Shown here one piece after another: positions 7,732-20,196 of a stretch of DNA of 20,196 nt. Every line of letters begins with the position of its first letter. Within the stretch, counting starts at the first letter, position 1. The stretch is from a virus. Lineage: Duplodnaviria; Heunggongvirae; Uroviricota; Caudoviricetes. The stretch spans positions 1 to 20,196 of the IMG/VR virus record IMGVR_UViG_2563366948_000002, one strand, 5' to 3'. The position numbers and the translations under genes are program-made. The notes under the pieces were generated by a model. That model was not told the origin of the DNA. It saw only the letters and a program-made list of their open reading frames with translations, and ran no database searches.

Positions 7732-8769
7732 TCATTCAATACCTAAATTATAATCTTCAAAACGCATGACTTCTTCTCCAAGCCAGTCGTTCAATTCCTG
7801 AAGGCGCTTCTGCAGAGGTATCAACTCGTTGCGAACAAAGACGCGGCTGGCTTTCTCCACATCCCCAAACCCCCCAACATTACTCGGCATAATCCCCATC
7901 ATTTGCGGCGGCACACGATGTGCTGCCATCATGTCATCCCGACTCACGTTCTTGATATTCAAAAACTCATCCTTCGCTGCGACCTCTGACAACGGGATAA
8001 TCTGAAGTCCGTCCTTTTTGCCGTTAGGCGAGTACATAAACAGATTGCGGAAGTTGCCAGGGCCTTTGGCGCTTTTCATTGCGTTGCGGAGGTTGTTCAC
8101 ATCTTCCTGGTTCTGCGCGGCATCGGTCATATACATGATGAAGCCTGCATGGCTACCGTTAATGTAATACTTGCGGCGGAACAGCGTGGCGGACTCGTTG
8201 AGCAGGGCTGACGGAATGGCAGAAAGATAACCGGGCAGGCCGTAGATCTCCTGGTTGATGTCCGGTTCCATCAGATGAAAAATGCTGCCTTTCGTGAACT
8301 GATACGGCAGGGTTGTCATACCGTATTGCACAAACCAGTAGGTATCCAGGTCTAATCCGCGTCGGGTGTATTTTGCAAGCGCAGGCTCAAGAGCGATAAC
8401 TTCACCGAATCGGTTCGTGCGTTTCTCCAGGTAGGCGTTACCAAATACCAGATAGTCCTGCACAAAACGCGAAAAAGCCTGCTGGCTGAGCAGCGGATGA
8501 GGGATATAGGTACTGGTCAGAATGTTGCACTTTACTGCAATCGGGGAACTGTGATGCACGGCGGCGCGGAAGGTGCGCGCCAGTCCGTCAAAGCTGACGG
8601 GCGGCTCATACCAACGGTCCATCTGTACGCATTCCACATAATCCAGCAGTTCTCGGCGGTCCAGAACAGGAACGGGATCGCCGAAGCTGAATGCTTCGGC
8701 TGTAGTTTGACTTTTAAGCTGGATCTGTTTCGTCGCCGCAGCGCGGTTCTTCTTACTCTTTCCCATCAA
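7732..8769 (-). CDS. Q: Portal protein, P2 gpQ family
   Basis: 345 aa (P2 gpQ recalled as about 344 aa); start overlaps the P stop (ATGA) as in P2; translation typical of gpQ portal. Confidence 0.9.
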   Translation of the reverse strand: MMGKSKKNRAAATKQIQLKSQTTAEAFSFGDPVPVLDRRELLDYVECVQMDRWYEPPVSFDGLARTFRAAVHHSSPIAVKCNILTSTYIPHPLLSQQAFSRFVQDYLVFGNAYLEKRTNRFGEVIALEPALAKYTRRGLDLDTYWFVQYGMTTLPYQFTKGSIFHLMEPDINQEIYGLPGYLSAIPSALLNESATLFRRKYYINGSHAGFIMYMTDAAQNQEDVNNLRNAMKSAKGPGNFRNLFMYSPNGKKDGLQIIPLSEVAAKDEFLNIKNVSRDDMMAAHRVPPQMMGIMPSNVGGFGDVEKASRVFVRNELIPLQKRLQELNDWLGEEVMRFEDYNLGIE

Positions 8770-10532
8770 AAAATCTCCACAATATTGCTGGTATTGGCGG
8801 ATTCGCCCTGCAGCGGTTCGTTAAACAGTGCGTGCATCGTTGCCCAGGCCAGATCGGCGTGGCTGGCTTCTTCGCTGCGGCTGGCTTCATAGGTCGGGCG
8901 GTTGCCACTGGCGGTGGTGGCGCGACGGATTGCCATAAAGGACTGCGCTATGTCGGTGTGTCCGGCGTCAAACTCCAGACGGCGGTGGCTGATAATGTCG
9001 TAGGCCTTGAGTACCAGGGCGTTTTTAACGTTGGGGTTGTAGACAAACTCCCGGACGGCAGGAAAAAACGCTTTCACGTTCTCGTAAACCCCGTGACCAA
9101 CGCCGGTTGAGTCGATACCGATATAGGTCACGTTGTACTGTTCGGTCAGTTTTTTGATGGCGTCAGCCTGGGCGCGGAAGTCCATTCCGCGCCACTGGTG
9201 ACGCTCAAGAATGCGGAACTTACCGCCCGGCACGGCTGGCGGCGCCACCACCACGCATCCGGCGCTGTCGCCGTTCTGCGTACCTTTCGCCGGGTCATAT
9301 CCGATCCACACTTCGCGCCAGCCAAACGGGCGCAGGGCCAGTGCATGAAAGTCGGTCCAGACTTCCCAACTGTCCACCATGCACGCCTGCAGCTCGCTGA
9401 GTGGGAACACGGACGCGAGATCGTCCACGAACTCACACATCAGCAGGTTCTGGTATTCGTCCGGGCTGTACTCCATGCGCAACTGGTCGAGGTCGAACAG
9501 GTTACAGCCGCCGCGCACCGCATCTTCCACAGTGACTATCTGGCGGTACTGCCCGTCTGCGCACAGCAGGCCGGGGGCCAGATTGCTGTGGGACAGGTCG
9601 ATGTCCACCTTATCGGCTTTGTTGCGCCCTCGGTTGAACAGCGCACCGGACCAGAACGGATAAGCACTGTGTGTCAGGCTGGATGGCGTGGAAAAATAGG
9701 TTTGTCGCCATTTTTTGTGAATAGCCATACCGGAAGCCACTTTGCGCAGCTCCTGGAATTTCGGTATCCAGAAATATTCATCCAGATACAGGTTGCCGTG
9801 GTAACTCTGGGCCGTGCGGGCATTGGTGCCGAGGAAGTACAGCGTGGCCCCGTTAGGAAGCACCATCGGATCGCCTTTCAGCTCCACCTCCACTTCTTTG
9901 GCGAAGTCGATGATGTACTGCTTAAAGACGTGGGCCTGAGCCTTGCTGGCGGAAAGGAAAATCTGGTTACGCCCGGTTAGCAGGGCGTCAATCAGGGCTT
10001 CACGGGCAAAATAGAAGGTCGCGCCGATCTGGCGTGATTTCAGCAGGTTGCGGATGCGGTTGGTTTTTCCGGCTTCCCACCAGTGGCGCTGGTAGTTGAA
10101 CATGGAGGAATGGAAGATTTCTTCCAACTTCTCAATCTGTTCATCGGTGAAAACGTTCTTTTCCAGCTGACGGCGCGGGCCTTTGTTGCGGTTGGCGACG
10201 TTAGGGTTTAAGTCGGCTTCGTTGCCGCCATTGTTAAACTTGCCGATCCGCGCATGGCGCTCCGACTGGCGCGCCAGCAGGTCAATCTCTTTGAAATCTT
10301 TCCCTTCTTTGTGCTCCTTCATAATGAGCTGGCAGTAGCGTGCGGCGGTGGTGAGCTGCATCTGATCCAGCGGCCCATAGTCACCCCACTTGTCGCGTTT
10401 TTTCCAGCTGTGAACGGTTGCAACTTTCTCGCCCAGCATTTCAGCAATGCGGGCTACGCGGTATCCCTGAAAGTACAGCAGCATGGCCTGCCGACGGGGA
10501 TCGAGATCTGCGGGTGTCAGTGTGGTGTTCAT
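8766..10532 (-). CDS. P: Terminase large (ATPase) subunit, P2 gpP family
   Basis: 588 aa (P2 gpP recalled as about 590 aa); translation matches gpP family by recall; divergent from O as in P2. Confidence 0.9.
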   Translation of the reverse strand: MNTTLTPADLDPRRQAMLLYFQGYRVARIAEMLGEKVATVHSWKKRDKWGDYGPLDQMQLTTAARYCQLIMKEHKEGKDFKEIDLLARQSERHARIGKFNNGGNEADLNPNVANRNKGPRRQLEKNVFTDEQIEKLEEIFHSSMFNYQRHWWEAGKTNRIRNLLKSRQIGATFYFAREALIDALLTGRNQIFLSASKAQAHVFKQYIIDFAKEVEVELKGDPMVLPNGATLYFLGTNARTAQSYHGNLYLDEYFWIPKFQELRKVASGMAIHKKWRQTYFSTPSSLTHSAYPFWSGALFNRGRNKADKVDIDLSHSNLAPGLLCADGQYRQIVTVEDAVRGGCNLFDLDQLRMEYSPDEYQNLLMCEFVDDLASVFPLSELQACMVDSWEVWTDFHALALRPFGWREVWIGYDPAKGTQNGDSAGCVVVAPPAVPGGKFRILERHQWRGMDFRAQADAIKKLTEQYNVTYIGIDSTGVGHGVYENVKAFFPAVREFVYNPNVKNALVLKAYDIISHRRLEFDAGHTDIAQSFMAIRRATTASGNRPTYEASRSEEASHADLAWATMHALFNEPLQGESANTSNIVEIF

Positions 10533-10578
10533 GGCACAAACCTACAGCCTTGAATGAAGGCTTTCCCCGCCTGCGGTT

Positions 10579-10596
10579 TGTGTGGTTGTCGGTACA
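10579..10596. promoter_or_regulatory. Candidate Ogr-type late-activator binding site (TGT-N12-ACA)
   Basis: TGTgtggttgtcggtACA in the P/O divergent intergenic region, centred about 87 nt upstream of the O start codon. Confidence 0.35.
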
Positions 10597-10674
10597 AATA
10601 CCGCGCATTGTTTCACTGCCCCCATCACCGCAACCATAAGGCTCCAGTAAGTTTTTTCTAACGGAGCACGGCTC

Positions 10675-11367
10675 ATGACAGTGAAAGCAAAGCGTTTTCG
10701 CATCGGGGTGGAAGGTGCCACCACCGACGGACGCGAAATCCAGCGTGAATGGCTGGAACAGATGGCAGCCAGCTATAACCCGGCGGTGTATACCGCGCTG
10801 ATTAACCTTGAGCACATCAAGTCTTATCTGCCGGACAGCACCTTTAACCGCTACGGCAAGGTGACGGCGCTGTTTGCTGAAGAAATCACGGAAGGTCCGC
10901 TGGCAGGCAAGATGGCGCTGTATGCTGACGTTGAGCCAACGGAGTCCCTGGTGGAACTGGTGAAAAAAGGCCAGAAATTATTCACCTCTATGGAAGTCAG
11001 CCCGAAGTTCGCTGATACGGGCAAAGCCTACCTGGTCGGCCTGGCTGCCACTGATGACCCTGCCAGTCTGGGCACTGAAATGCTGACATTCAGCGCCAGT
11101 GCAGCCCATAAACCGCTTAACCCGTCGCTGGCCCGCGACATTATCGAAGGTATCCGCGCCAAAATGCGCAGCCTGGTCAGTCAGGGCTATCTCATTGGTG
11201 GTGATTGCTGGCTGGATGAGTCGGTGAACGACAAAGACACGCTGAAAGCCGGAAAACTCACCATCGACTACGACTACACGCCAGTGCCGCCACTTGAAAA
11301 CCTGATGCTGCGTCAGCGCATCACCGATCAGTACCTGGTGAATTTCGCCAGCCAGGTCAGCGCGTAA
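10675..11367 (+). pseudogene. Chimeric ORF: N-terminal part of capsid scaffold gpO fused to a C-terminal fragment assigned by synteny to tail sheath FI
   Basis: First about 150 aa resemble gpO (FRIGVEGxTxDGR...NLEH...[17 protein letters not shown]...NPLN). The ORF then ends 10 nt before FII, the position normally held by FI. N, M, L, lysis, baseplate and fibre genes are absent between O and FII. Confidence 0.6.
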
Positions 11368-11376
11368 GGGGACAAC

Positions 11377-11892
11377 ATGGCTTTACCACGCAAATTAAAA
11401 CACCTGAACCTGTTTAACGACGGGAACAACTGGCAGGGGATCGTTGAGTCGCTGACGCTGCCGAAATTTACCCGCAAATATGAGAAGTATCGCGGCGGCG
11501 GGATGCCGGGTGCGGTGGATGTGGATCTGGGGCTTGATGACAGTGCGCTGGACACAGAATTTTCCATTGGTGGTACTGAATTGCTGCTGTTTAAACAGAT
11601 GGGTAAAGCCACGGTGGATGGCATCCAGCTGCGCTTTACCGGCTCTATTCAGCGTGACGATACCGGGGAAGTGCAGGCCGTGGAGCTTGTCGTGCGTGGA
11701 CGTCACAAAGAAGTGGATTCCGGCGAGTGGAAGACGGGCGAAAGCAACACCACCAAAGTGACCAGTACCAACAGCTACGCGAAGCTGACCATCAATGGTG
11801 AGGTGCTCTATGAAGTGGACCTTATCAACATGGTGGAAATTGTGGACGGTGTGGACCTGATGGAAGCGCACCGCAACGCCCTCGGCCTCTGA
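11377..11892 (+). CDS. FII: Tail tube protein, P2 gpFII family
   Basis: MALPRKLKHLNLFNDGNNW...NMVEIVDGVDLMEAHRNALGL matches recalled P2 FII almost end to end; 171 aa. Confidence 0.9.
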   Translation: MALPRKLKHLNLFNDGNNWQGIVESLTLPKFTRKYEKYRGGGMPGAVDVDLGLDDSALDTEFSIGGTELLLFKQMGKATVDGIQLRFTGSIQRDDTGEVQAVELVVRGRHKEVDSGEWKTGESNTTKVTSTNSYAKLTINGEVLYEVDLINMVEIVDGVDLMEAHRNALGL

Positions 11893-11946
11893 TATATCTG
11901 AACGGCGCGGGATACCGCGCCAGAACCCAATTGACAGGACAGCAAA

Positions 11947-12249
11947 ATGAGCGATAAGCAGACTGAAAAGACCATTCAACTGGATACCCCCATCAAGCGC
12001 GGTAAAACAGAAATCACCGAAATTGTGCTGCGTAAACCGCAGTCCGGTGCGCTGCGCGGTACACGCCTGCAGGCCATTATGGATATGGATGTAAACGCGA
12101 TGATGACCGTGATCCCCCGCATCTCCAGTCCGGCACTGACTGCACAGGAAATTGCAGAGATGGACCCGGCAGATCTCACTGCCATGTCGGTTGAGGTTGT
12201 CACTTTTTTGTTGAAGAAGTCGGTGCTTGCCGGTTTACCGACAGCCTGA
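11947..12249 (+). CDS. E: Tail assembly chaperone gpE
   Basis: Small ORF between FII and T, as in P2; contains slippery heptamer TTTTTTG near its 3' end. Confidence 0.8.
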   Translation: MSDKQTEKTIQLDTPIKRGKTEITEIVLRKPQSGALRGTRLQAIMDMDVNAMMTVIPRISSPALTAQEIAEMDPADLTAMSVEVVTFLLKKSVLAGLPTA

Positions 12250-12383
12250 CGGTTGACGATCTTGTGGCAGATATCGCCACCATTTTTCACTGGCCGCCAT
12301 CCGTTACTGACGTTATGCCGCTGACCGAAGTGCTGGAATGGCGGTATAAAGCGATTCAGAGAAGCGGGGCCAACGATGAGTGA
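11947..12383 (+). CDS. gpE+E' product of a programmed -1 translational frameshift
   Basis: Slippery T_TTT_TTG at 12204-12210 in the E frame; the -1 frame stays open from 12210 to TGA at 12381-12383, overlapping the T start (12376). Confidence 0.55.
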
Positions 12384-15300
12384 TAACAACCTGCGTCTGC
12401 AGGTCATTCTTAATGCGGTTGACAAGCTCACCCGCCCATTTCGATCTGCGCAGGCCAGTTCAAGAGAACTGGCTGCTGCTGTCAAAAAATCCCGCGATGC
12501 AATAAAGCAGCTTGATCAGGCCGGGAGCAGTCTGGACAGCTTCCGAAAGCTGCAGGCAGAAAATCAGAAATTAGGCGACAGGCTGAACTATGCCCGCCAG
12601 CGTGCAAATTTGCTCAGTCAGGAACTGGGAGCGATGGGGCCGCCTTCGCAACGTCAGGTTGTTGCTCTGGGCCGTCAACGGCTGGCTGTTCAGCGCCTGG
12701 AAGAACGCCAGAAAAAGCTGCAGCAGCAGACGGCGCTTGTGCGTGCTGAACTGTACCGGGCGGGAATTTCTGCGAAAGACGATGCGGGAGCAACTGCCCG
12801 TTTAGCCCGTGAAACATCACGTTATAACCAGGAACTTTCGAAACAGGAGGCGCGGCTGAAGCGACTGGGGGAAGCTCAGCGCAGGATGAATGCAGCGCGT
12901 GCCAGTTATGCCCGTTCGCTGGAGGTGCGTGATCGTATTGCAGGTGCCGGAGCCACCACCACGGCTGCAGGGCTGGCAATGGGTGCGCCAGTGATGGCGG
13001 CAGTAAAAAGCTATACCAGCATGGAAGATGCCATGAAAGGTGTGGCAAAGCAGGTCAATGGTCTGCGTGACGATAATGGCAACCGCACTGCACGTTTTTA
13101 TGAAATGCAGGATGCCATCAAGGCTGCCAGCGAACAGTTGCCGATGGAAAACGGTGCGGTGGACTTCGCTGCACTGGTTGAAGGTGGTGCGCGCATGAAC
13201 GTCGCAAACCCTGACGACAGCTGGGAAGATCAGAAACGTGACCTGCTGGCCTTCGCCAGTACGGCAGCAAAGGCGGCAACAGCCTTTGAGCTGCCAGCGG
13301 ATGAACTGTCAGAAAGTCTGGGGAAAATCGCCCAGCTCTACAAAATCCCCACCCGCAATATTGAACAGCTCGGTGATGCGCTGAACTATCTGGATGATAA
13401 CGCCATGTCGAAAGGGGCAGACATCATTGATGTGATGCAACGTCTGGGCGGTGTGGCTGACCGTCTGGATTATCGTAAAGCGGCGGCGCTGGGTTCCACC
13501 TTCCTGACACTGGGCGCTGCGCCAGAGGTTGCAGCCAGTGCAGCAAACGCGATGGTGCGTGAATTGTCCATTGCCACCATGCAAAGCAAGAGTTTCTTTG
13601 AAGGGATGAATCTGCTGAAACTCAATCCTGAAGTGATTGAAAAGCAGATGACGAAGGATGCGATGGGAACCATCCAGCGCGTGCTGGAGAAGGTAAACGC
13701 GCTGCCGCAGGACAAGCGCCTGTCTGCCATGACTATGTTGTTTGGTAAAGAGTTTGGCGATGACGCGGCGAAACTGGCAAACAACCTGCCGGAACTGCAG
13801 CGTCAGTTAAAACTGACAGCGGGCAATGATGCGCTCGGCTCCATGCAGAAAGAATCCGACATTAACAAGGATTCACTTTCTGCGCAGTGGTTGCTGGTCA
13901 AAACCGGAGCGCAGAACACCTTCAGCAGCCTGGGCGAAACGCTGCGCCAGCCGCTGATGGATATTCTGTACACGGTGAAAAGCGTCACGGGGGCGTTGCG
14001 TCGCTGGGTGGAAGCTAACCCGGAACTGACAGGCACACTGATGAAAGCATCGGCTGTTGTGGCTGCGGTTACCGTCGGCCTCGGCACCTTAGCGGTGGCG
14101 CTGGCTGCAGTGCTGGGGCCGCTGGCAGTGATCCGTCTGGGATTCTCTGTGTTGGGTATCAAAACGTTATCTTCCGTTACGGCAGCAGTAACTCGAACCA
14201 GCAGCGCGTTGTCCTGGCTGGCTGGCGCACCACTGGCACTGCTGCGACGCGGGCTTGCTTCATCGGGCAACGCCGCAGGTTTACTTACTGCGCCGTTGTC
14301 GTCTTTGCGCCGCACGGCATCACTGACGGGAAATGTCCTGAAAACTGTAGCAGGTGCGCCGGTTGCACTTTTGCGGTCTGGATTATCCGGTTTACGTGCT
14401 GTTGCTGTGATGTTTATGAATCCTCTGGCGGTACTGCGCGGTGGACTGGCCGCCGCAGGCACGGTGCTGCGAGTACTGGCATCTGGTCCACTGGCGATGC
14501 TGCGCATTGCCCTGTATGCCATATCTGGTCTGTTAGGTGCTCTGCTCAGTCCGATAGGTCTTGTGGTTACTGCACTGGCGGGCGTGGCGCTGGTTGTCTG
14601 GAAATACTGGCAACCCATCACCGCATTTCTCGGTGGCGTGGTGGAAGGATTCAAAGCGGCGGCAGGTCCCATCAGTGCAGCGTTCGAACCGCTTAAGCCC
14701 GTGTTCCAGTGGATTGGCGACAAAGTGCAGGCGCTGTGGGGCTGGTTTACTGATCTGCTGACGCCCGTTAAGTCGACCTCTGCCGAACTGCAGAGCGCAG
14801 CGGCAATGGGGCGGCGATTCGGGGAGGCACTGGCGGAAGGGCTGAATATGGTCATGCATCCGCTGGACTCCCTGAAATCCGGCGTTTCCTGGTTGCTGGA
14901 GAAGCTCGGCATTGTCAGTAAAGAGGCCGCAAAGGCAAAACTGCCGGAAAGCGTGACGCGTCAGCAACCTGCGACGGTGAATGCAGACGGTAAAGTGATG
15001 ATGCCATCGGGTGGTTTTCCATCATGGGGATATGGCTTTGCGGGGATGTATGACAGCGGCGGGTATATCCCGCGCGGGCAGTTTGGCATCGTCGGTGAAA
15101 ACGGGCCGGAAATTGTTAACGGCCCGGCAAATGTGACCAGCCGGAGAAATACAGCTGCACTGGCTGCCGTTGTTGCCGGAATGATGGGCGTTGCTGCCGC
15201 GCCAGCAGAGCTTCCACCGTTGCACCCTTTGGCACTTCCCGCGAAAGGTGGAGAAGCAATTGTGAGTCGCGCAGCCACTGTGCCGCTCGTTCAACGGATT

Positions 15301-15453
15301 GAGGCACCGACGCAGATCATCATTCAGACGCAGCCAGGACAAAGTGCGCAGGATATTGCGCGGGAGGTGGCACGCCAGCTTGATGAACGTGAACGCAGGC
15401 TGAAGGCAAAAGCCAGGAGTAACTACAGCGATCAGGGGGGATACGACGCATGA
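12376..15453 (+). CDS. T: Tail tape measure protein, P2 gpT family
   Basis: 1025-aa Ala/Leu/Gln-rich protein with coiled-coil-like N-terminal half and repeated hydrophobic PLAxLR segments; sits between E/E' and U. Confidence 0.9.
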   Translation: MSDNNLRLQVILNAVDKLTRPFRSAQASSRELAAAVKKSRDAIKQLDQAGSSLDSFRKLQAENQKLGDRLNYARQRANLLSQELGAMGPPSQRQVVALGRQRLAVQRLEERQKKLQQQTALVRAELYRAGISAKDDAGATARLARETSRYNQELSKQEARLKRLGEAQRRMNAARASYARSLEVRDRIAGAGATTTAAGLAMGAPVMAAVKSYTSMEDAMKGVAKQVNGLRDDNGNRTARFYEMQDAIKAASEQLPMENGAVDFAALVEGGARMNVANPDDSWEDQKRDLLAFASTAAKAATAFELPADELSESLGKIAQLYKIPTRNIEQLGDALNYLDDNAMSKGADIIDVMQRLGGVADRLDYRKAAALGSTFLTLGAAPEVAASAANAMVRELSIATMQSKSFFEGMNLLKLNPEVIEKQMTKDAMGTIQRVLEKVNALPQDKRLSAMTMLFGKEFGDDAAKLANNLPELQRQLKLTAGNDALGSMQKESDINKDSLSAQWLLVKTGAQNTFSSLGETLRQPLMDILYTVKSVTGALRRWVEANPELTGTLMKASAVVAAVTVGLGTLAVALAAVLGPLAVIRLGFSVLGIKTLSSVTAAVTRTSSALSWLAGAPLALLRRGLASSGNAAGLLTAPLSSLRRTASLTGNVLKTVAGAPVALLRSGLSGLRAVAVMFMNPLAVLRGGLAAAGTVLRVLASGPLAMLRIALYAISGLLGALLSPIGLVVTALAGVALVVWKYWQPITAFLGGVVEGFKAAAGPISAAFEPLKPVFQWIGDKVQALWGWFTDLLTPVKSTSAELQSAAAMGRRFGEALAEGLNMVMHPLDSLKSGVSWLLEKLGIVSKEAAKAKLPESVTRQQPATVNADGKVMMPSGGFPSWGYGFAGMYDSGGYIPRGQFGIVGENGPEIVNGPANVTSRRNTAALAAVVAGMMGVAAAPAELPPLHPLALPAKGGEAIVSRAATVPLVQRIEAPTQIIIQTQPGQSAQDIAREVARQLDERERRLKAKARSNYSDQGGYDA

Positions 15454-15935
15454 TGATGGTGCTGGGATTGTACGTGTTTATGCTGCGCACCGTTCCGTAT
15501 CAGGAACTGCAGTATCAACGCAGCTGGCGACATGCGGCAAACAGTCGGGTAAACCGACGTCCGTCCACGCAGTTTCTGGGACCGGAAAACGACATGCTGA
15601 CGCTTTCCGGTGTTCTTATGCCGGAAATAACAGGCGGCAGGCTGTCGTTGCTGGCACTGGAGCAGATGGCAGAACAGGGGAAAGCATGGCCCCTGATTGA
15701 AGGCAGCGGCACGATTTACGGCATGTATGTGATTGAGGGACTGAATCAGACTAAAACGGAGTTTTTCCGCGATGGTATGCCGCGCCGGATTGAGTTCACC
15801 CTGTCGCTCAAACGGGTGGATGAATCCCTGTCCGATATGTTCGGTGATCTCAGTGCGCAGCTGAATAATTTGCAGGATACGACAACGTCTGCCTTAAGCG
15901 ATATCAGTAAAACGGTGGGAGGGCTGCTGTCGTGA
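15450..15935 (+). CDS. U: Tail protein gpU
   Basis: MMMVLGLYVFM...GVLMPEITGG...AWPLIEG...GMYVI...TLSLKRVDESL matches recalled P2 gpU; overlaps the T stop. Confidence 0.9.
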   Translation: MMMVLGLYVFMLRTVPYQELQYQRSWRHAANSRVNRRPSTQFLGPENDMLTLSGVLMPEITGGRLSLLALEQMAEQGKAWPLIEGSGTIYGMYVIEGLNQTKTEFFRDGMPRRIEFTLSLKRVDESLSDMFGDLSAQLNNLQDTTTSALSDISKTVGGLLS

Positions 15936-17032
15936 ATTTCAGCTCTGAACTGCTTAACAAAGGCAACAAAACTCCGGCATTCAGCATCAGTATTGAGGGT
16001 AAGGATATCACCACTGTGCTGGATAACCGCCTGATGAGTCTGACGCTGACGGACAATCGGGGCTTTGAAGCGGACCAGCTTGATCTGGAGCTGGACGACG
16101 CCGACGGAAAAATCGTGCTGCCGCGCCGTGGTGCGGTCATTACGCTGGCGTTGGGCTGGAAGGGGCAGTCGCTTTTCCCGAAAGGAGCATTCACGGTGGA
16201 CGAGATTGAACACACTGGCGCACCGGACCGCCTGACTATCCGGGCGCGAAGTGCTGATTTTCGTGAAACCCTGAATATCCGCCGTGAAAAATCGTGGCAC
16301 AAGACCACCGTTGGGGAAGTGGTGAAGGAAATAGCTGCGCGGCACAAACTGAAGATGGCATTGGGTGAAGACCTGTCGGATAAACCTGTGGAGCATATAG
16401 ACCAGACCAATGAGAGTGACGGCAGTTTTCTGATGCGGCTGGCGCGCCAGTACGGTGCTATTGCGTCGGTGAAAAATGACAATCTGTTATTCATCCGGCA
16501 GGGACAGGGTAAAAGCGCCAGCGGTAAACCACTACCGGTTATCACTATCACACGTAAGGACGGCGACAGTCACCGCTTTATCCTGGCAGATCGCGGAGCC
16601 TACACGGGCGTAATTGCCAGCTGGTTGCATACCCGCGAACCCGCGAAGAAAGAAAGCACCACGGTGAAGCGTAAGCGCAGGACTAAGAAGCAGAAGAAAG
16701 AGCCGGAAGCGAAGCAGGGCGATTACCTGGTGGGTACAGATGAAAACGTGCTGGTACTTAATCGCACCTATGCCAACCGGAGCAACGCCGAACGGGCGGC
16801 GAAAATGCAGTGGGAACGCCTGCAACGTGGCGTTGCGTCATTCTCGCTACAACTGGCAGAAGGTCGGGCGGATCTCTACACGGAAATGCCAGTGAAAGTC
16901 AGAGGCTTTAAACAGCCGATAGATGATGCGGAATGGACTATTACCACCCTGACGCATACTGTCAATCCGGATAACGGTTTTACGACCAGTCTGGAGCTTG
17001 AAGTGAAGATTAATGATTTCGAAATGGAATGA
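15932..17032 (+). CDS. D: Tail protein gpD (late control gene D family)
   Basis: 366 aa, probable GTG start overlapping the U stop (GTGA); last late gene before ogr, as in P2. Confidence 0.85.
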   Translation: MNFSSELLNKGNKTPAFSISIEGKDITTVLDNRLMSLTLTDNRGFEADQLDLELDDADGKIVLPRRGAVITLALGWKGQSLFPKGAFTVDEIEHTGAPDRLTIRARSADFRETLNIRREKSWHKTTVGEVVKEIAARHKLKMALGEDLSDKPVEHIDQTNESDGSFLMRLARQYGAIASVKNDNLLFIRQGQGKSASGKPLPVITITRKDGDSHRFILADRGAYTGVIASWLHTREPAKKESTTVKRKRRTKKQKKEPEAKQGDYLVGTDENVLVLNRTYANRSNAERAAKMQWERLQRGVASFSLQLAEGRADLYTEMPVKVRGFKQPIDDAEWTITTLTHTVNPDNGFTTSLELEVKINDFEME

Positions 17033-17122
17033 TTCTTCGTAATAGAGAACTTTTAAGTTTTCAAAATGGAATAATGCGGTATCATTATTGTGAATTTAGC
17101 AAAAATGGGGAGAGCTCGAAAA

Positions 17123-17341
17123 ATGATGATTTGCCCACTGTGTGGAAGTGCCGCCCATACTCGCAGCAGTTTTCAGGTATCTTCATTGACCAAAGAGCGT
17201 TACAACCAGTGCCAGAACATTAACTGCAGCCATACTTTTGTTACCCATGAAACTTTTGTTCGTTCGATTGCAACGCCAAAAGAGTCAAATCCGGTTCAGC
17301 CGCATCCAATGAAATCAGGACAGGTGGCGCTCTCTCTTTGA
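17123..17341 (+). CDS. ogr: Late gene transcriptional activator Ogr (zinc-finger)
   Basis: MMICPLCGSAAHTRSS...ERYNQCQNINCSHTF...PHPMKSGQ: C-x2-C-x22-C-x4-C zinc finger; 72 aa from ATG 17123 with GGGGAGAG SD (ORF track starts further upstream at 17090). Confidence 0.85.
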   Translation: MMICPLCGSAAHTRSSFQVSSLTKERYNQCQNINCSHTFVTHETFVRSIATPKESNPVQPHPMKSGQVALSL

Positions 17342-17421
17342 CTCTGCCGCCAATTTGTCGCCATCGTTAAAAAACAGTGCTTCTAACATCATGATTTTAA
17401 ACGGCATAAATTTCAGGCAAC

Positions 17422-17464
17422 AAAAAACCCATCAACCTTGAACCGAAATGGCGGGGTTGATGGG
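17422..17464 (-). terminator. Rho-independent terminator on the minus strand, downstream of ybjL
   Basis: On minus strand: CCCATCAACC-17 nt loop-GGTTGATGGG followed by TTTTTT (plus-strand arms 17428-17437 and 17455-17464, A-run 17422-17427). Confidence 0.55.
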
Positions 17465-17576
17465 CTCCACAAAATGGGGACATCAAAGAAAAGCAGTGGC
17501 ACTAATTAAGACTGATGCCCTGCGGAAAAGTTCTGCGGTTGTGCAAAAAAATTTCATTTTCAGGGCAACTTCAGTT

Positions 17577-19262
17577 TTATCCTAATCCTGGCCATACCAT
17601 GACGATGATTGTCCCTGCCAGCGTCAGCAGGACGTTGGCGATTGCATAGGTGCCCGCATAGCCCAGCGCCGGGATGTTACTGCGAGCTGTATCACTGATG
17701 ATCTCCATTGCCGGCGCGCAGGTACGTGCGCCCATCATTGCGCCGAACAACAGCGCGCGGTTCATTCGCAATACATAAGCACCGAACAAGAAACAGATAA
17801 CCACGGGCACCAGACTGACAATCAATCCGGCAATCAACATCTGACCGCCAATCGCGCCCAGGCCGTTATTAATACCGCTACCGGCGCTCAGACCAACGCC
17901 TGCCATAAACACCATCAAGCCGAACTCTTTCACCATGCTTAATGCACCCTGCGGAATGTAACCGAAGGTCGGGTGGTTAGCACGCATAAAGCCCAGCATA
18001 ATTCCGGCGAATAACAACCCGGCAGCGTTCCCCATGCCGAAACTGAATGTGCTGAACTGGAAGGTGATCATCCCGATCATCAGCCCAATAACAAAGAAGG
18101 CGCAGAATGCCAGCAGGTCAGTGACCTGGCTGTGAATCGAGATAAAGCCGATGCGATCGGCGATGGTTTTTACGCGGCGGGCATCGCCGCTGACTTGTAA
18201 AACGTCACCTTTGTTAAGCACGACGTTGTCATCTATCGGCATCTCAATCTGGCTACGAATGACGCGGTTAAGGAAGCAACCGTGATCGGTCAACTTCAGT
18301 TGTGCGAGACGTTTACCTACAGCGTTATGGTTTTTAACGACCACTTCTTCAGTGACGATACGCATGTCGAGAAGGTCACGATCGAAAACTTCTTTACCGT
18401 TACGGAAGCTGGGATCGAGTCGGGCATGGGCGTCGGGATAGCCTACCAACGCTATTTCATCGCCCATTTGTAGCACGGCATCACCGTCTGGATTTGCCAG
18501 AATCCCGTTACGTCGAATACGTTCAATGTAGCAGCCGGTTTGTCGATAAATACCCAGTTCACGCAGATTTTTGCCGTCGGTCCAGGCCACCAGTTCCGGG
18601 CCGACGCGATAGGCGCGGATCACCGGTAAATAAACCTTACGGTTGGCATCAGTGTCCAGGCCACGTTCGCGGGCGATTTGCTGGGCGCTGGTCTGTAAGT
18701 CCTGATGCTGCAATTTCGGCAAGTAACGCGCACCAACAATCAAACTCACCAGACCGATTAAATAGGTTAAGGCATACCCGAGGCTCAGATTATCCAGTGC
18801 CAGTGAGAGCTGCCTGCTTTCCATGCCGGAATGACGCAGTGTATCGCCAGCACCGACCAGAACCGGTGTCGACGTCATAGAGCCTGCTAACATACCGGCC
18901 GTCAGGCCAATATCCCAGCCAAACAGCTTACCTAACCCTAAGGCGATCACCAGCGCACTGCCAACCATCACCAGTGCTAACATTAGGTAATTTTTCCCAT
19001 CGCGAAAAAAAATGGAAAAAAAGTTCGGTCCGGCTTCGACCCCGACGCAGAAAATAAACAGCATAAAGCCAAGATTAAGCGCATCGGTGTTAATGCTGAA
19101 ATGTTGTTGGCCTAATAACAGCGATACGACTAAAACGCCAATGGAATTACCCAGTTGGATCGAACCAAGTCGTAACTTTCCGAGACATAGCCCAAGCGCG
19201 AGGACCACAAATAATAACAGAATGTAATTCCCATTTAACAATTCGGCGACGTTTATATTCAC
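17577..19262 (-). CDS. ybjL: Putative transport protein YbjL (two TrkA-C domains flanked by membrane domains)
   Basis: 561-aa polytopic membrane protein; matches E. coli YbjL by recall; GC and codon style differ from the cargo modules. Confidence 0.85.
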
Positions 19263-19531
19263 GGAGGCTAACTTCTTGTTTACTAGTAAGCTGTTGAAAG
19301 AAATGGTAATTTACGATAATGTTTTTTACCAGAATTCAGGGCGCAGATTCATTCAGCGCACCTAAACGATAGTAAAGTAACAATATATTTTACTAGTGTA
19401 ATCACATTAGGTATCAACGGCTATATGAATTGCGTTGGCCTATATTAGCATGGAATGCGAAGCGGCTTTATCTTACTGAACGCCACACTGGCGAAAAATG
19501 TGTTCGATAGACGCAGTGTCAGGAGGAACGA

Positions 19532-19909
19532 GTGAAACATAAACAACGTTGGGCGGGGGCAATCTGCTGTTTTGTCCTCTTCATTGTGGTGTGCCTTTTT
19601 CTGGCGACGCACATGAAAGGCGCTTTTCGGGCTGCCGGGCATCCTGAAATCGGCTTGCTATTTTTCATTCTTCCTGGAGCAGTCGCCAGCTTCTTTTCAC
19701 AGCGTAGAGAAGTCCTGAAACCTCTGTTTGGCGCAATGCTGGCGGCACCCTGTTCGATGCTCATTATGCGGCTGTTTTTTTCACCGACGCGCTCATTCTG
19801 GCAAGAGCTGGCATGGTTACTAAGCGCGGTGTTCTGGTGTGCGCTGGGGGCACTGTGTTTCTTATTTATCAGTAGTTTGTTTAAACCACAGCACAGAAAA
19901 AATCAGTAA
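19532..19909 (+). CDS. ybjM: Inner membrane protein YbjM
   Basis: 125-aa hydrophobic protein, GTG start with AGGAGG SD; divergent from ybjL and convergent with grxA, as in E. coli K-12. Confidence 0.7.
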   Translation: MKHKQRWAGAICCFVLFIVVCLFLATHMKGAFRAAGHPEIGLLFFILPGAVASFFSQRREVLKPLFGAMLAAPCSMLIMRLFFSPTRSFWQELAWLLSAVFWCALGALCFLFISSLFKPQHRKNQ

Positions 19910-19929
19910 AGCCCTCAACGCGAGGGCTT
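19909..19929. terminator. Shared hairpin terminator between convergent ybjM and grxA
   Basis: AAGCCCTC-aacgc-GAGGGCTT: 8-bp stem; T-rich tract follows on the minus strand. Confidence 0.45.
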
Positions 19930-19938
19930 GTCAGACGA

Positions 19939-20196
19939 TCAGGCGTCCAGATTTTCTTTCACCCATGCAGCAAAATCGGTATAGCCGCCGATATGTTGCT
20001 GATCGACAAAAATCTGCGGCACGGTTTCTACGGGTTTACCTGCCTTTTGTTGTAGATCTTCTTTAGTGATCCCTTCCGCACGAATATCTACATACTGATA
20101 CTGAAAATCATCGCGTTCATTGCTCAATTTCTCAGCCAGATCTTTTGCACGCACACAGTAAGGGCAACCCGAACGACCAAAAATAACGGTTTGCAT
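19939..20196 (-). CDS. grxA: Glutaredoxin 1
   Basis: 85 aa with CPYC active site (GRSGCPYCVRAK); complete, ATG at the window end. Confidence 0.9.
   Translation of the reverse strand: MQTVIFGRSGCPYCVRAKDLAEKLSNERDDFQYQYVDIRAEGITKEDLQQKAGKPVETVPQIFVDQQHIGGYTDFAAWVKENLDA

Follow-up and report, generated by a model that had tools for sequence, protein, structure and literature searches.

The late region of a P2-like prophage remnant

We analysed a 20,196-nt stretch of viral DNA (Caudoviricetes; IMG/VR record IMGVR_UViG_2563366948_000002, positions 1 to 20,196), hereafter the window, in which gene E and a second reading frame in the -1 register lie between the tail tube and tape-measure genes. 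Positions 675-20196 are 100% identical to the 3.1-Mb scaffold KE137010.1 of the E. coli draft genome GCA_000408345.1. The prophage extends from an integrase gene (1-1053, minus strand) to ogr (17123-17341), beyond which follow ybjL, ybjM and grxA, and it is the remnant of a P2-like element of the Wadgaonvirus/Elveevirus type. Its late region comprises the following features:

10675..11367, plus strand: in-frame O'-'FI fusion ORF created by the late-region deletion (junction 11108-11117; PF05929, PF17482)
11377..11892, plus strand: FII, tail tube gene upstream of E (PF04985 Phage_tube, E = 9e-60)
11947..12249, plus strand: gene E, tail assembly chaperone, zero frame, 100 aa (ORF, PF10109, phrog_103)
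12204..12210, plus strand: slippery heptamer TTTTTTG, read T_TTT_TTG (X_XXY_YYZ) in the E frame
12210..12383, plus strand: E' extension, 57 codons in the -1 frame plus TGA (PF06528, phrog_1756, third-position bias)
12376..15453, plus strand: T, tape-measure gene (PF10145, E = 2e-18)
15450-15935, plus strand: U, F operon (PF06995, E = 3e-44)
15932-17032, plus strand: D, F operon (PF05954, E = 2e-26)
17123..17341, plus strand: ogr/Delta-type late-gene activator (NF007241, E = 4e-28, below the curated cut-off; PF04606 Ogr_Delta on the identical contig)

Two deletions distinguish this element from its relatives. In the BLAST comparison with Escherichia phage 500465-1, the match runs to 11117 inside the scaffold gene O and resumes at 11108 inside the sheath gene FI, marking a late-region deletion of 12,437 bp at an imperfect 10-bp microhomology, ATAA[A/C]CCGCT. 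The resulting O'-'FI product joins PF05929 GPO (residues 6-149) to the sheath C-terminal domain PF17482 (residues 141-217). The deletion removed N, M, L, X, R, S, V, W, J, I, H and G along with the lysis genes and the invertase; O was left without its C-terminal part and FI without its N-terminal part, about two thirds of the gene. By comparison with the LR-46 prophage, a second deletion took out 5,111 bp: a CII-family gene is joined to a DinI-like gene at 2604/2605, leaving a 96-aa junction ORF (window 2398-2688; PF06892 plus a weak DinI match), and fil, DUF5347, DUF2732, TraR, a Dam methylase and replication endonuclease A are gone. Because of these two deletions, the element can neither replicate nor build heads or tails.

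An earlier note on this DNA had described a prophage that cannot build tails, and the deletion of the sheath N-terminal part, the baseplate genes and the fibre genes bears this out. The same note called the tail module well preserved. This holds for FII, E/E', T, U, D and ogr, which are intact and align to an active phage at 98.6% identity without gaps; it does not hold for FI.

Beyond the tail genes, the variable cargo region of the element holds a DarT/DarG toxin-antitoxin (anti-phage defence) pair at 3156-3737 and 3742-4713 (PADLOC: DarT 2e-36, DarG 3e-80), past which homology to LR-46 reveals an IS5-family fragment at about 4870-4977. Three co-oriented ORFs (5435-6550, 6551-6997 and 6997-7662) occupy the interval from DarTG to the portal gene, where P2 usually has its accessory/defence hotspot. 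They have no NCBIfam or PADLOC match and no Pfam match on record, and they match PHROGs of unknown function (phrog_12777, 11490 and 9664). The block (5435-7662) is shared with the prophage of E. coli AST205 at about 88% identity and is a candidate for an uncharacterised defence system.

In other E. coli strains, the rcdA-ybjL site likewise holds P2-like prophages, and these have undergone different, independent late-region deletions. The AST205 prophage (L023, 15085-15488) is deleted from the terminase gene P into E', which destroys the E/E' site, while the LR-46 prophage (L024, 27849-30287) is deleted from the baseplate gene V into T. That several independently deleted prophages have kept T-U-D-ogr was considered as a sign of selection, a reading rejected as uninformative, since any internal deletion by its construction leaves the ends in place.

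Gene E and its -1 frame

Gene E starts at ATG 11947, with AGGA located 8 nt 5' of the start. Its product matches PF10109 Phage_TAC_7 over residues 9-88 (E = 1e-18; 67.5 bits against a cut-off of 25), a family that Pfam describes as 'tail assembly chaperone proteins E, or 41 or 14', as well as phrog_103 'tail protein' (E = 2e-42). The exact protein is found on at least 1000 contigs under the name 'phage tail assembly protein'. An NCBIfam search gave no model match for E or E+E', and a PDB sequence search gave no solved relative.

The heptamer covers the last base of ACT (12202-12204) and the E codons TTT (12205-12207) and TTG (12208-12210), and is followed by 12 sense codons before the E stop (TGA 12247-12249). 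Its letters, its register and its place near the end of E had all been given in the earlier note and were confirmed here. The -1 frame is open from 12195. From 12210 up to its stop, TGA 12381-12383, it contains 57 sense codons (VEEVGACRF...SGANDE), which yields a predicted E+E' protein of 88 + 57 = 145 aa (join 11947..12210, 12210..12383). The ATG of T at 12376 overlaps the end of E' by 8 nt (ATGAGTGA). For this frame, too, the 57 further codons, the position of the TGA and the overlap with the T start had been put forward, and every figure is correct.

By themselves, the heptamer and the open frame are weak evidence. Bare TTTTTTG occurs 15 times in the window against an expectation of 9.8 +/- 3.1, which is no enrichment, and about 7% of mononucleotide shuffles of 12210-12509 also have a -1 frame open for at least 57 codons. 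In a scan of the tail genes, no gene but E has an in-frame heptamer with a -1 frame that runs beyond the stop, the T/U junction aside.

The -1 product itself carries a recognisable domain. The conceptual fusion matches PF06528 Phage_P2_GpE (E = 2.9e-18; 65.5 bits against a cut-off of 23) over the full profile (1-37), corresponding to fusion residues 107-143. Besides PF10109 and PF06528, no Pfam family reaches E = 0.01 on E/E'. Furthermore, phrog_1756 covers fusion residues 85-145 and spans the slip site.

Two other sequence elements of the tail operon are recorded here. At the T/U junction, G_GGG_GGA (15435-15441) lies in frame 4 codons 5' of the T stop; its -1 frame is the U frame, which is open for 164 codons from there, and a slip would fuse T to U. 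The T and U genes of P2 do not overlap, and we consider this heptamer probably a chance occurrence. Between FII and E, a GC-rich hairpin without a T-tail (GGCGCGG-GATA-CCGCGCC, 11905-11922) occupies the position at which phage 186 annotates a partial terminator (tI), and it could attenuate transcription into E-T-U-D.

Conservation among relatives

The DNA around the site (11900-12420) is 99.8% identical to Escherichia phage 500465-1 (Wadgaonvirus), 98.5% identical to phage Cartapus (Elveevirus) and 99.6% identical to Klebsiella phage KP12, the last being a comparison at the DNA level only. The E and E+E' proteins of 500465-1 and Cartapus are 100% identical to those of the window and are likewise flanked by FII and T. 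Unlike the window element, 500465-1, Cartapus and KP12 have complete genomes, in which the sheath, baseplate, fibres and heads are all represented. The records of 500465-1 and Cartapus list E and a separate 39-aa GpE ORF, with no frameshift join.

A tblastn search with the fusion protein matched 419 phage records, with hosts in Escherichia, Klebsiella, Salmonella, Yersinia, Burkholderia, Ralstonia, Pseudomonas, Vibrio, Aeromonas, Stenotrophomonas and Mannheimia. Among the 60 matches listed (of 419), 57 are split in two, the pattern to be expected of halves that occupy different frames.

The homologous place was compared across 22 relatives (Peduoviridae and related myophages; protein identity from 100% down to about 36%). 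All 22 contain an in-frame X_XXY_YYZ heptamer within the stretch in which both frames are open: TTTTTTG in 16, TTTTTTT and TTTTTTC in 2 each, and G_GGA_AAG and A_AAT_TTT in 1 each. The T run is seven long in Smp131 and 1F53_PE003, and T6G, T7G and T7C variants of the heptamer are known to exist (PMC3931495). In Mannheimia phage phiMhaA1 (694-700; G_GGA_AAG) and Citrobacter phage Shae_phiSM (655-661; A_AAT_TTT), the T run at the E/E' site is replaced.

Downstream of the heptamer, the two frames behave differently. The zero-frame tails of the relatives vary between 2 and 22 aa and are unconserved, whereas the -1 extension is conserved in 22 of 22, with an alignment core of V-[ED]-[DE]-x-x-A-D-I-A-x-[IV]-F-H-W-x-P ... 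E-L-x-x-W-R-x-x-A-x-x-R-S. A lack of such conservation in homologues had been named in advance as an outcome that would speak against a frameshift at this place. In the part read as E' only, nucleotide differences at -1-frame codon positions 1/2/3 number 5/2/10 against RE2010 and 3/3/14 against ST11-VIM1phi8.4. This third-position bias marks coding constraint in the -1 frame. Frame, position, domain match and conservation combined are beyond chance, which the heptamer alone is not; it is the PF06528 match of the -1 product, together with the conservation in 22 of 22 relatives, that places the site far above chance.

Automated gene callers give the same 3' region a different form:

12264..12383, plus strand: 39-aa 'GpE family' ORF with a GTG start (identical E. 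coli contig, 500465-1, Cartapus)

If E' were such a separate gene, initiated independently at GTG 12264 and ending with the TGA at 12383, the heptamer would be incidental. A stand-alone 39-aa 'GpE family phage tail protein' is indeed annotated in several GenBank/RefSeq records, PF06528 covers only the 37 residues concerned, and 16 of the 22 relatives have GTG or ATG at the start position. However, no SD-like sequence is present in the 18 nt that precede GTG 12264, and in 6 of the 22 relatives the equivalent codon is TGG, ATT, GCC, ATC, GAG or TAC (W, I, A, I, E, Y). The missing SD and the replaced start codon argue against independent initiation. The -1 frame is moreover open back to the heptamer in all 22 relatives, including those that lack a start-capable codon, and both the V-E/D-D protein conservation and phrog_1756 reach from the start of the 39-aa ORF upstream to the slip site. 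The curated P2 record, in addition, treats E+E' as an essential -1 frameshift product. We regard a separate gene as highly improbable: the 39-aa ORF is most probably the 3' part of E' and no independent gene.

A nearly identical protein would result from transcriptional slippage, in which RNA polymerase adds one U in the T6 run and the mRNA then reads into E' without any slip of the ribosome. Homopolymeric runs such as the six T found here, or the seven in Smp131 and 1F53_PE003, can support polymerase stuttering. Six residues are nevertheless few for E. coli RNA polymerase, whose efficient slippage generally calls for a run of some 8-9 or longer. The G_GGA_AAG and A_AAT_TTT heptamers of two relatives fit tandem tRNA re-pairing and not polymerase stuttering, and the X_XXY_YYZ register, which polymerase slippage would not need, is conserved. 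We therefore give this route very little credence, and a ribosomal -1 shift at the heptamer is the reading followed below.

Comparison with phage P2

In the P2 record NC_001895, E of the FETUD operon is located at 19430-19705, E+E' is a two-piece join spanning 19430-19857 and T starts at 19850 (E and E+E' are features P2p25/P2p26). The record states that E+E' 'shares amino terminus with gpE; -1 frameshift; essential tail protein' and sets the shift site at 19685, which the P2 heptamer TTTTTTG (19678-19684) directly adjoins. According to the literature, the -1 shift at TTTTTTG in P2 leads to a 91-aa E and a 142-aa E+E' without a downstream hairpin, and the P2-type E/E+E' shift is conserved in Burkholderia P2-like phages (PMC3091744).

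The two sites agree closely in their layout. T_TTT_TTG is identical in letters and register in the window and in P2, the -1 extension is exactly 57 codons long in both, and the end of E' overlaps the start of T by 8 nt in both (19857 versus 19850 in P2). In either genome, E/E' lies between FII and T in the F-operon order, encodes the same two Pfam families and is without a downstream hairpin.

The differences concern sequence and length. In the alignment with P2 E/E' that the earlier note had proposed, the E+E' proteins are 48.9% identical over window residues 7-145. E comprises 100 aa in the window and 91 aa in P2, with zero-frame tails past the heptamer of 12 aa and 6 aa, respectively; E+E' comprises 145 aa versus 142 aa, and T 1025 aa versus 815 aa (the latter from P2 coordinates 19850-22297). 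Finally, the window element is a deleted, non-viable prophage. The -1 shift frequency in P2 was reportedly put at about 10% by Christie et al. in 2002.

On every feature that can be tested in a sequence, the site is a member of the P2 E/E+E' frameshift family. The proposal of a conserved P2-like E/E' frameshift thus finds agreement with P2 in domains, heptamer, synteny, T overlap and relatives.

Comparison with dnaX and lambda

The E. coli dnaX frameshift site consists of the heptamer A_AAA_AAG, an SD-like element about 10 nt upstream of it and a stem-loop downstream. The window site shares with dnaX an X_XXY_YYZ tandem-slippage heptamer in an enterobacterial mRNA. A candidate for an upstream SD-like element is the following:

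12191..12198, plus strand: Shine-Dalgarno-like TTGAGGTT, candidate stimulator (GAGGT core 12193-12197, ending 6 nt before the heptamer)

This spacing of 6 nt differs from that of dnaX, and the element is not universal among relatives. With respect to downstream structure, the fold of 12211-12300 (-26.1 kcal/mol) compares with a shuffle mean of -23.5 kcal/mol (z = -0.76), so that no exceptional structure was found in this interval and a downstream RNA stimulator was rejected as no better than shuffles. The result agrees with what has been reported for P2-like phages (PMC3091744). Judged by this predicted fold, the window site is not a dnaX-type site with downstream structure.

Within E, TTGAGGTT ranks third among 302 anti-SD duplex windows. 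The anti-SD site near the heptamer is the strongest or among the top three in E in the window, P2, RE2010, ST11-VIM1phi8.4, RsoM1USA, KS5 and SEN5, and the element is absent from 5 of the 19 sequences scanned (Smp131, VHML, Shae_phiSM, 1F53_PE003 and 3LV2017). This signal is confounded, as it coincides with conserved E/K-V residues and the scanned sequences are related to each other. The element could be a previously unremarked contributor to the shift, and we treat it as a lead and not as a result. We think it unlikely that GAGGT (12193-12197) tunes or stimulates the E/E' shift in many P2-like phages, or that products of the remnant interfere with superinfecting P2-like phages.

The tail assembly chaperone frameshift of lambda G/GT is associated with the work of Levin et al. 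in 1993 and of Xu et al. in 2004, 2013 and 2014. In that system, the two proteins share a domain that binds the tape measure, and the tube subunit is bound by the extension; the proportion of the two products is critical, and neither is present in the virion (PMC5009743). The reported G:GT ratio is about 30:1. The analogy to lambda G/GT drawn in the earlier note stands for function and architecture. It does not extend to sequence: according to the literature, lambda G/GT has no amino-acid similarity to the E/E' pair, and E and E' belong to Pfam families of their own (PF10109 and PF06528). Lambda also differs in its heptamer, its lower reported frequency and its non-contractile tail. One point of contact is phiMhaA1, the Mannheimia relative of the window, whose E/E' site has G_GGA_AAG, which we take to be the lambda G/GT heptamer.

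Proposed mechanism

Taken together, 12204-12210 is very probably the programmed -1 ribosomal frameshift signal of a P2-type tail assembly chaperone pair, E and E+E'. Most ribosomes translating E would read through T_TTT_TTG to the stop at 12247-12249 and produce the 100-aa gpE. A minority would slip back by one base at the heptamer, with tRNA-Phe on TTT and tRNA-Leu on TTG re-pairing with TTT TTT. The slipped ribosomes would then resume at GTT (12210) and read 57 codons up to TGA 12381-12383, yielding the 145-aa E+E'. Tandem slippage after TTG would give the junction peptide ...VVTFLVEEVGACR, and a P-site slip with an empty A site would give ...VVTFFVEEVGACR.

By analogy with lambda G/GT, the shared N-terminal domain may bind the tape-measure protein T, and the E' domain may recruit the tube protein FII. 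A fixed slip frequency would set the ratio of the two chaperones. The slip at 12204-12210, its efficiency and the chaperone roles are all carried over here from the literature on P2 and lambda.

Present use in a deleted prophage

Whether the signal is still used in this element is separate from what the signal is. An intact signal may sit in an operon that is no longer expressed, or whose products are idle, and that will decay; this reading concerns present use and not identity, and it is compatible with a programmed -1 frameshift. The loss of sheath, baseplate, fibre, head, lysis and replication genes makes a current function of the E/E' signal doubtful. Among the parts that are gone are the sheath N-terminal part, the baseplate, the fibres, tail completion, the capsid, the small terminase and the lysis and replication genes, and the native pF promoter region disappeared when the 5' end of FI was deleted. 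Few contigs have the exact O'-'FI fusion: an exact-protein look-up found it on 14, all E. coli, and the junction occurs in 0 of 5,426 complete E. coli genomes and has 0 matches in GTDB species representatives. The gap-free 98.6% identity to an active phage points to a recent event that left no time for decay.

Set against an idle relic, all six ORFs downstream are intact, and the element has kept ogr and a candidate activator site upstream of the O'-'FI fusion:

10579..10596, plus strand: TGT-N12-ACA dyad in the P/O intergenic region, candidate Ogr-type activator site (position only)

Matches to this pattern number 6 in the window where 5 are expected, which is no enrichment, and the P2 record annotates a pO/pP activator-binding site in the P/O intergenic region, as for this dyad. 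The dyad would now drive O'-'FI-FII-E/E'-T-U-D. Since pO now lies upstream of the fusion, Ogr-dependent expression is conceivable despite the loss of pF, and transcription from pO might still follow activation by Ogr or Delta, for example from a superinfecting P2-like phage. On balance, we lean towards a signal that is at present idle. For the intact state of FII-E/E'-T-U-D-ogr, a recent deletion offers as good an explanation as selection does, and it is the simplest and probably the right one.

Meaning of the site

The P2-type E/E' frameshift site in the window is of an already known kind and is ordinary. It matters little beyond correct annotation, and no open question becomes testable through it. 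The correct annotation is one E+E' CDS joined across the -1 shift, in place of E and an orphan 39-aa 'GpE family' gene. If the products were indeed made, which is a remote prospect, pO-driven O'-'FI and FII-E/E'-T-U-D would appear upon superinfection by a P2-like phage and could disturb its assembly. For the history of the prophage itself, the intact recoding signal is a marker of a recent late-region deletion.
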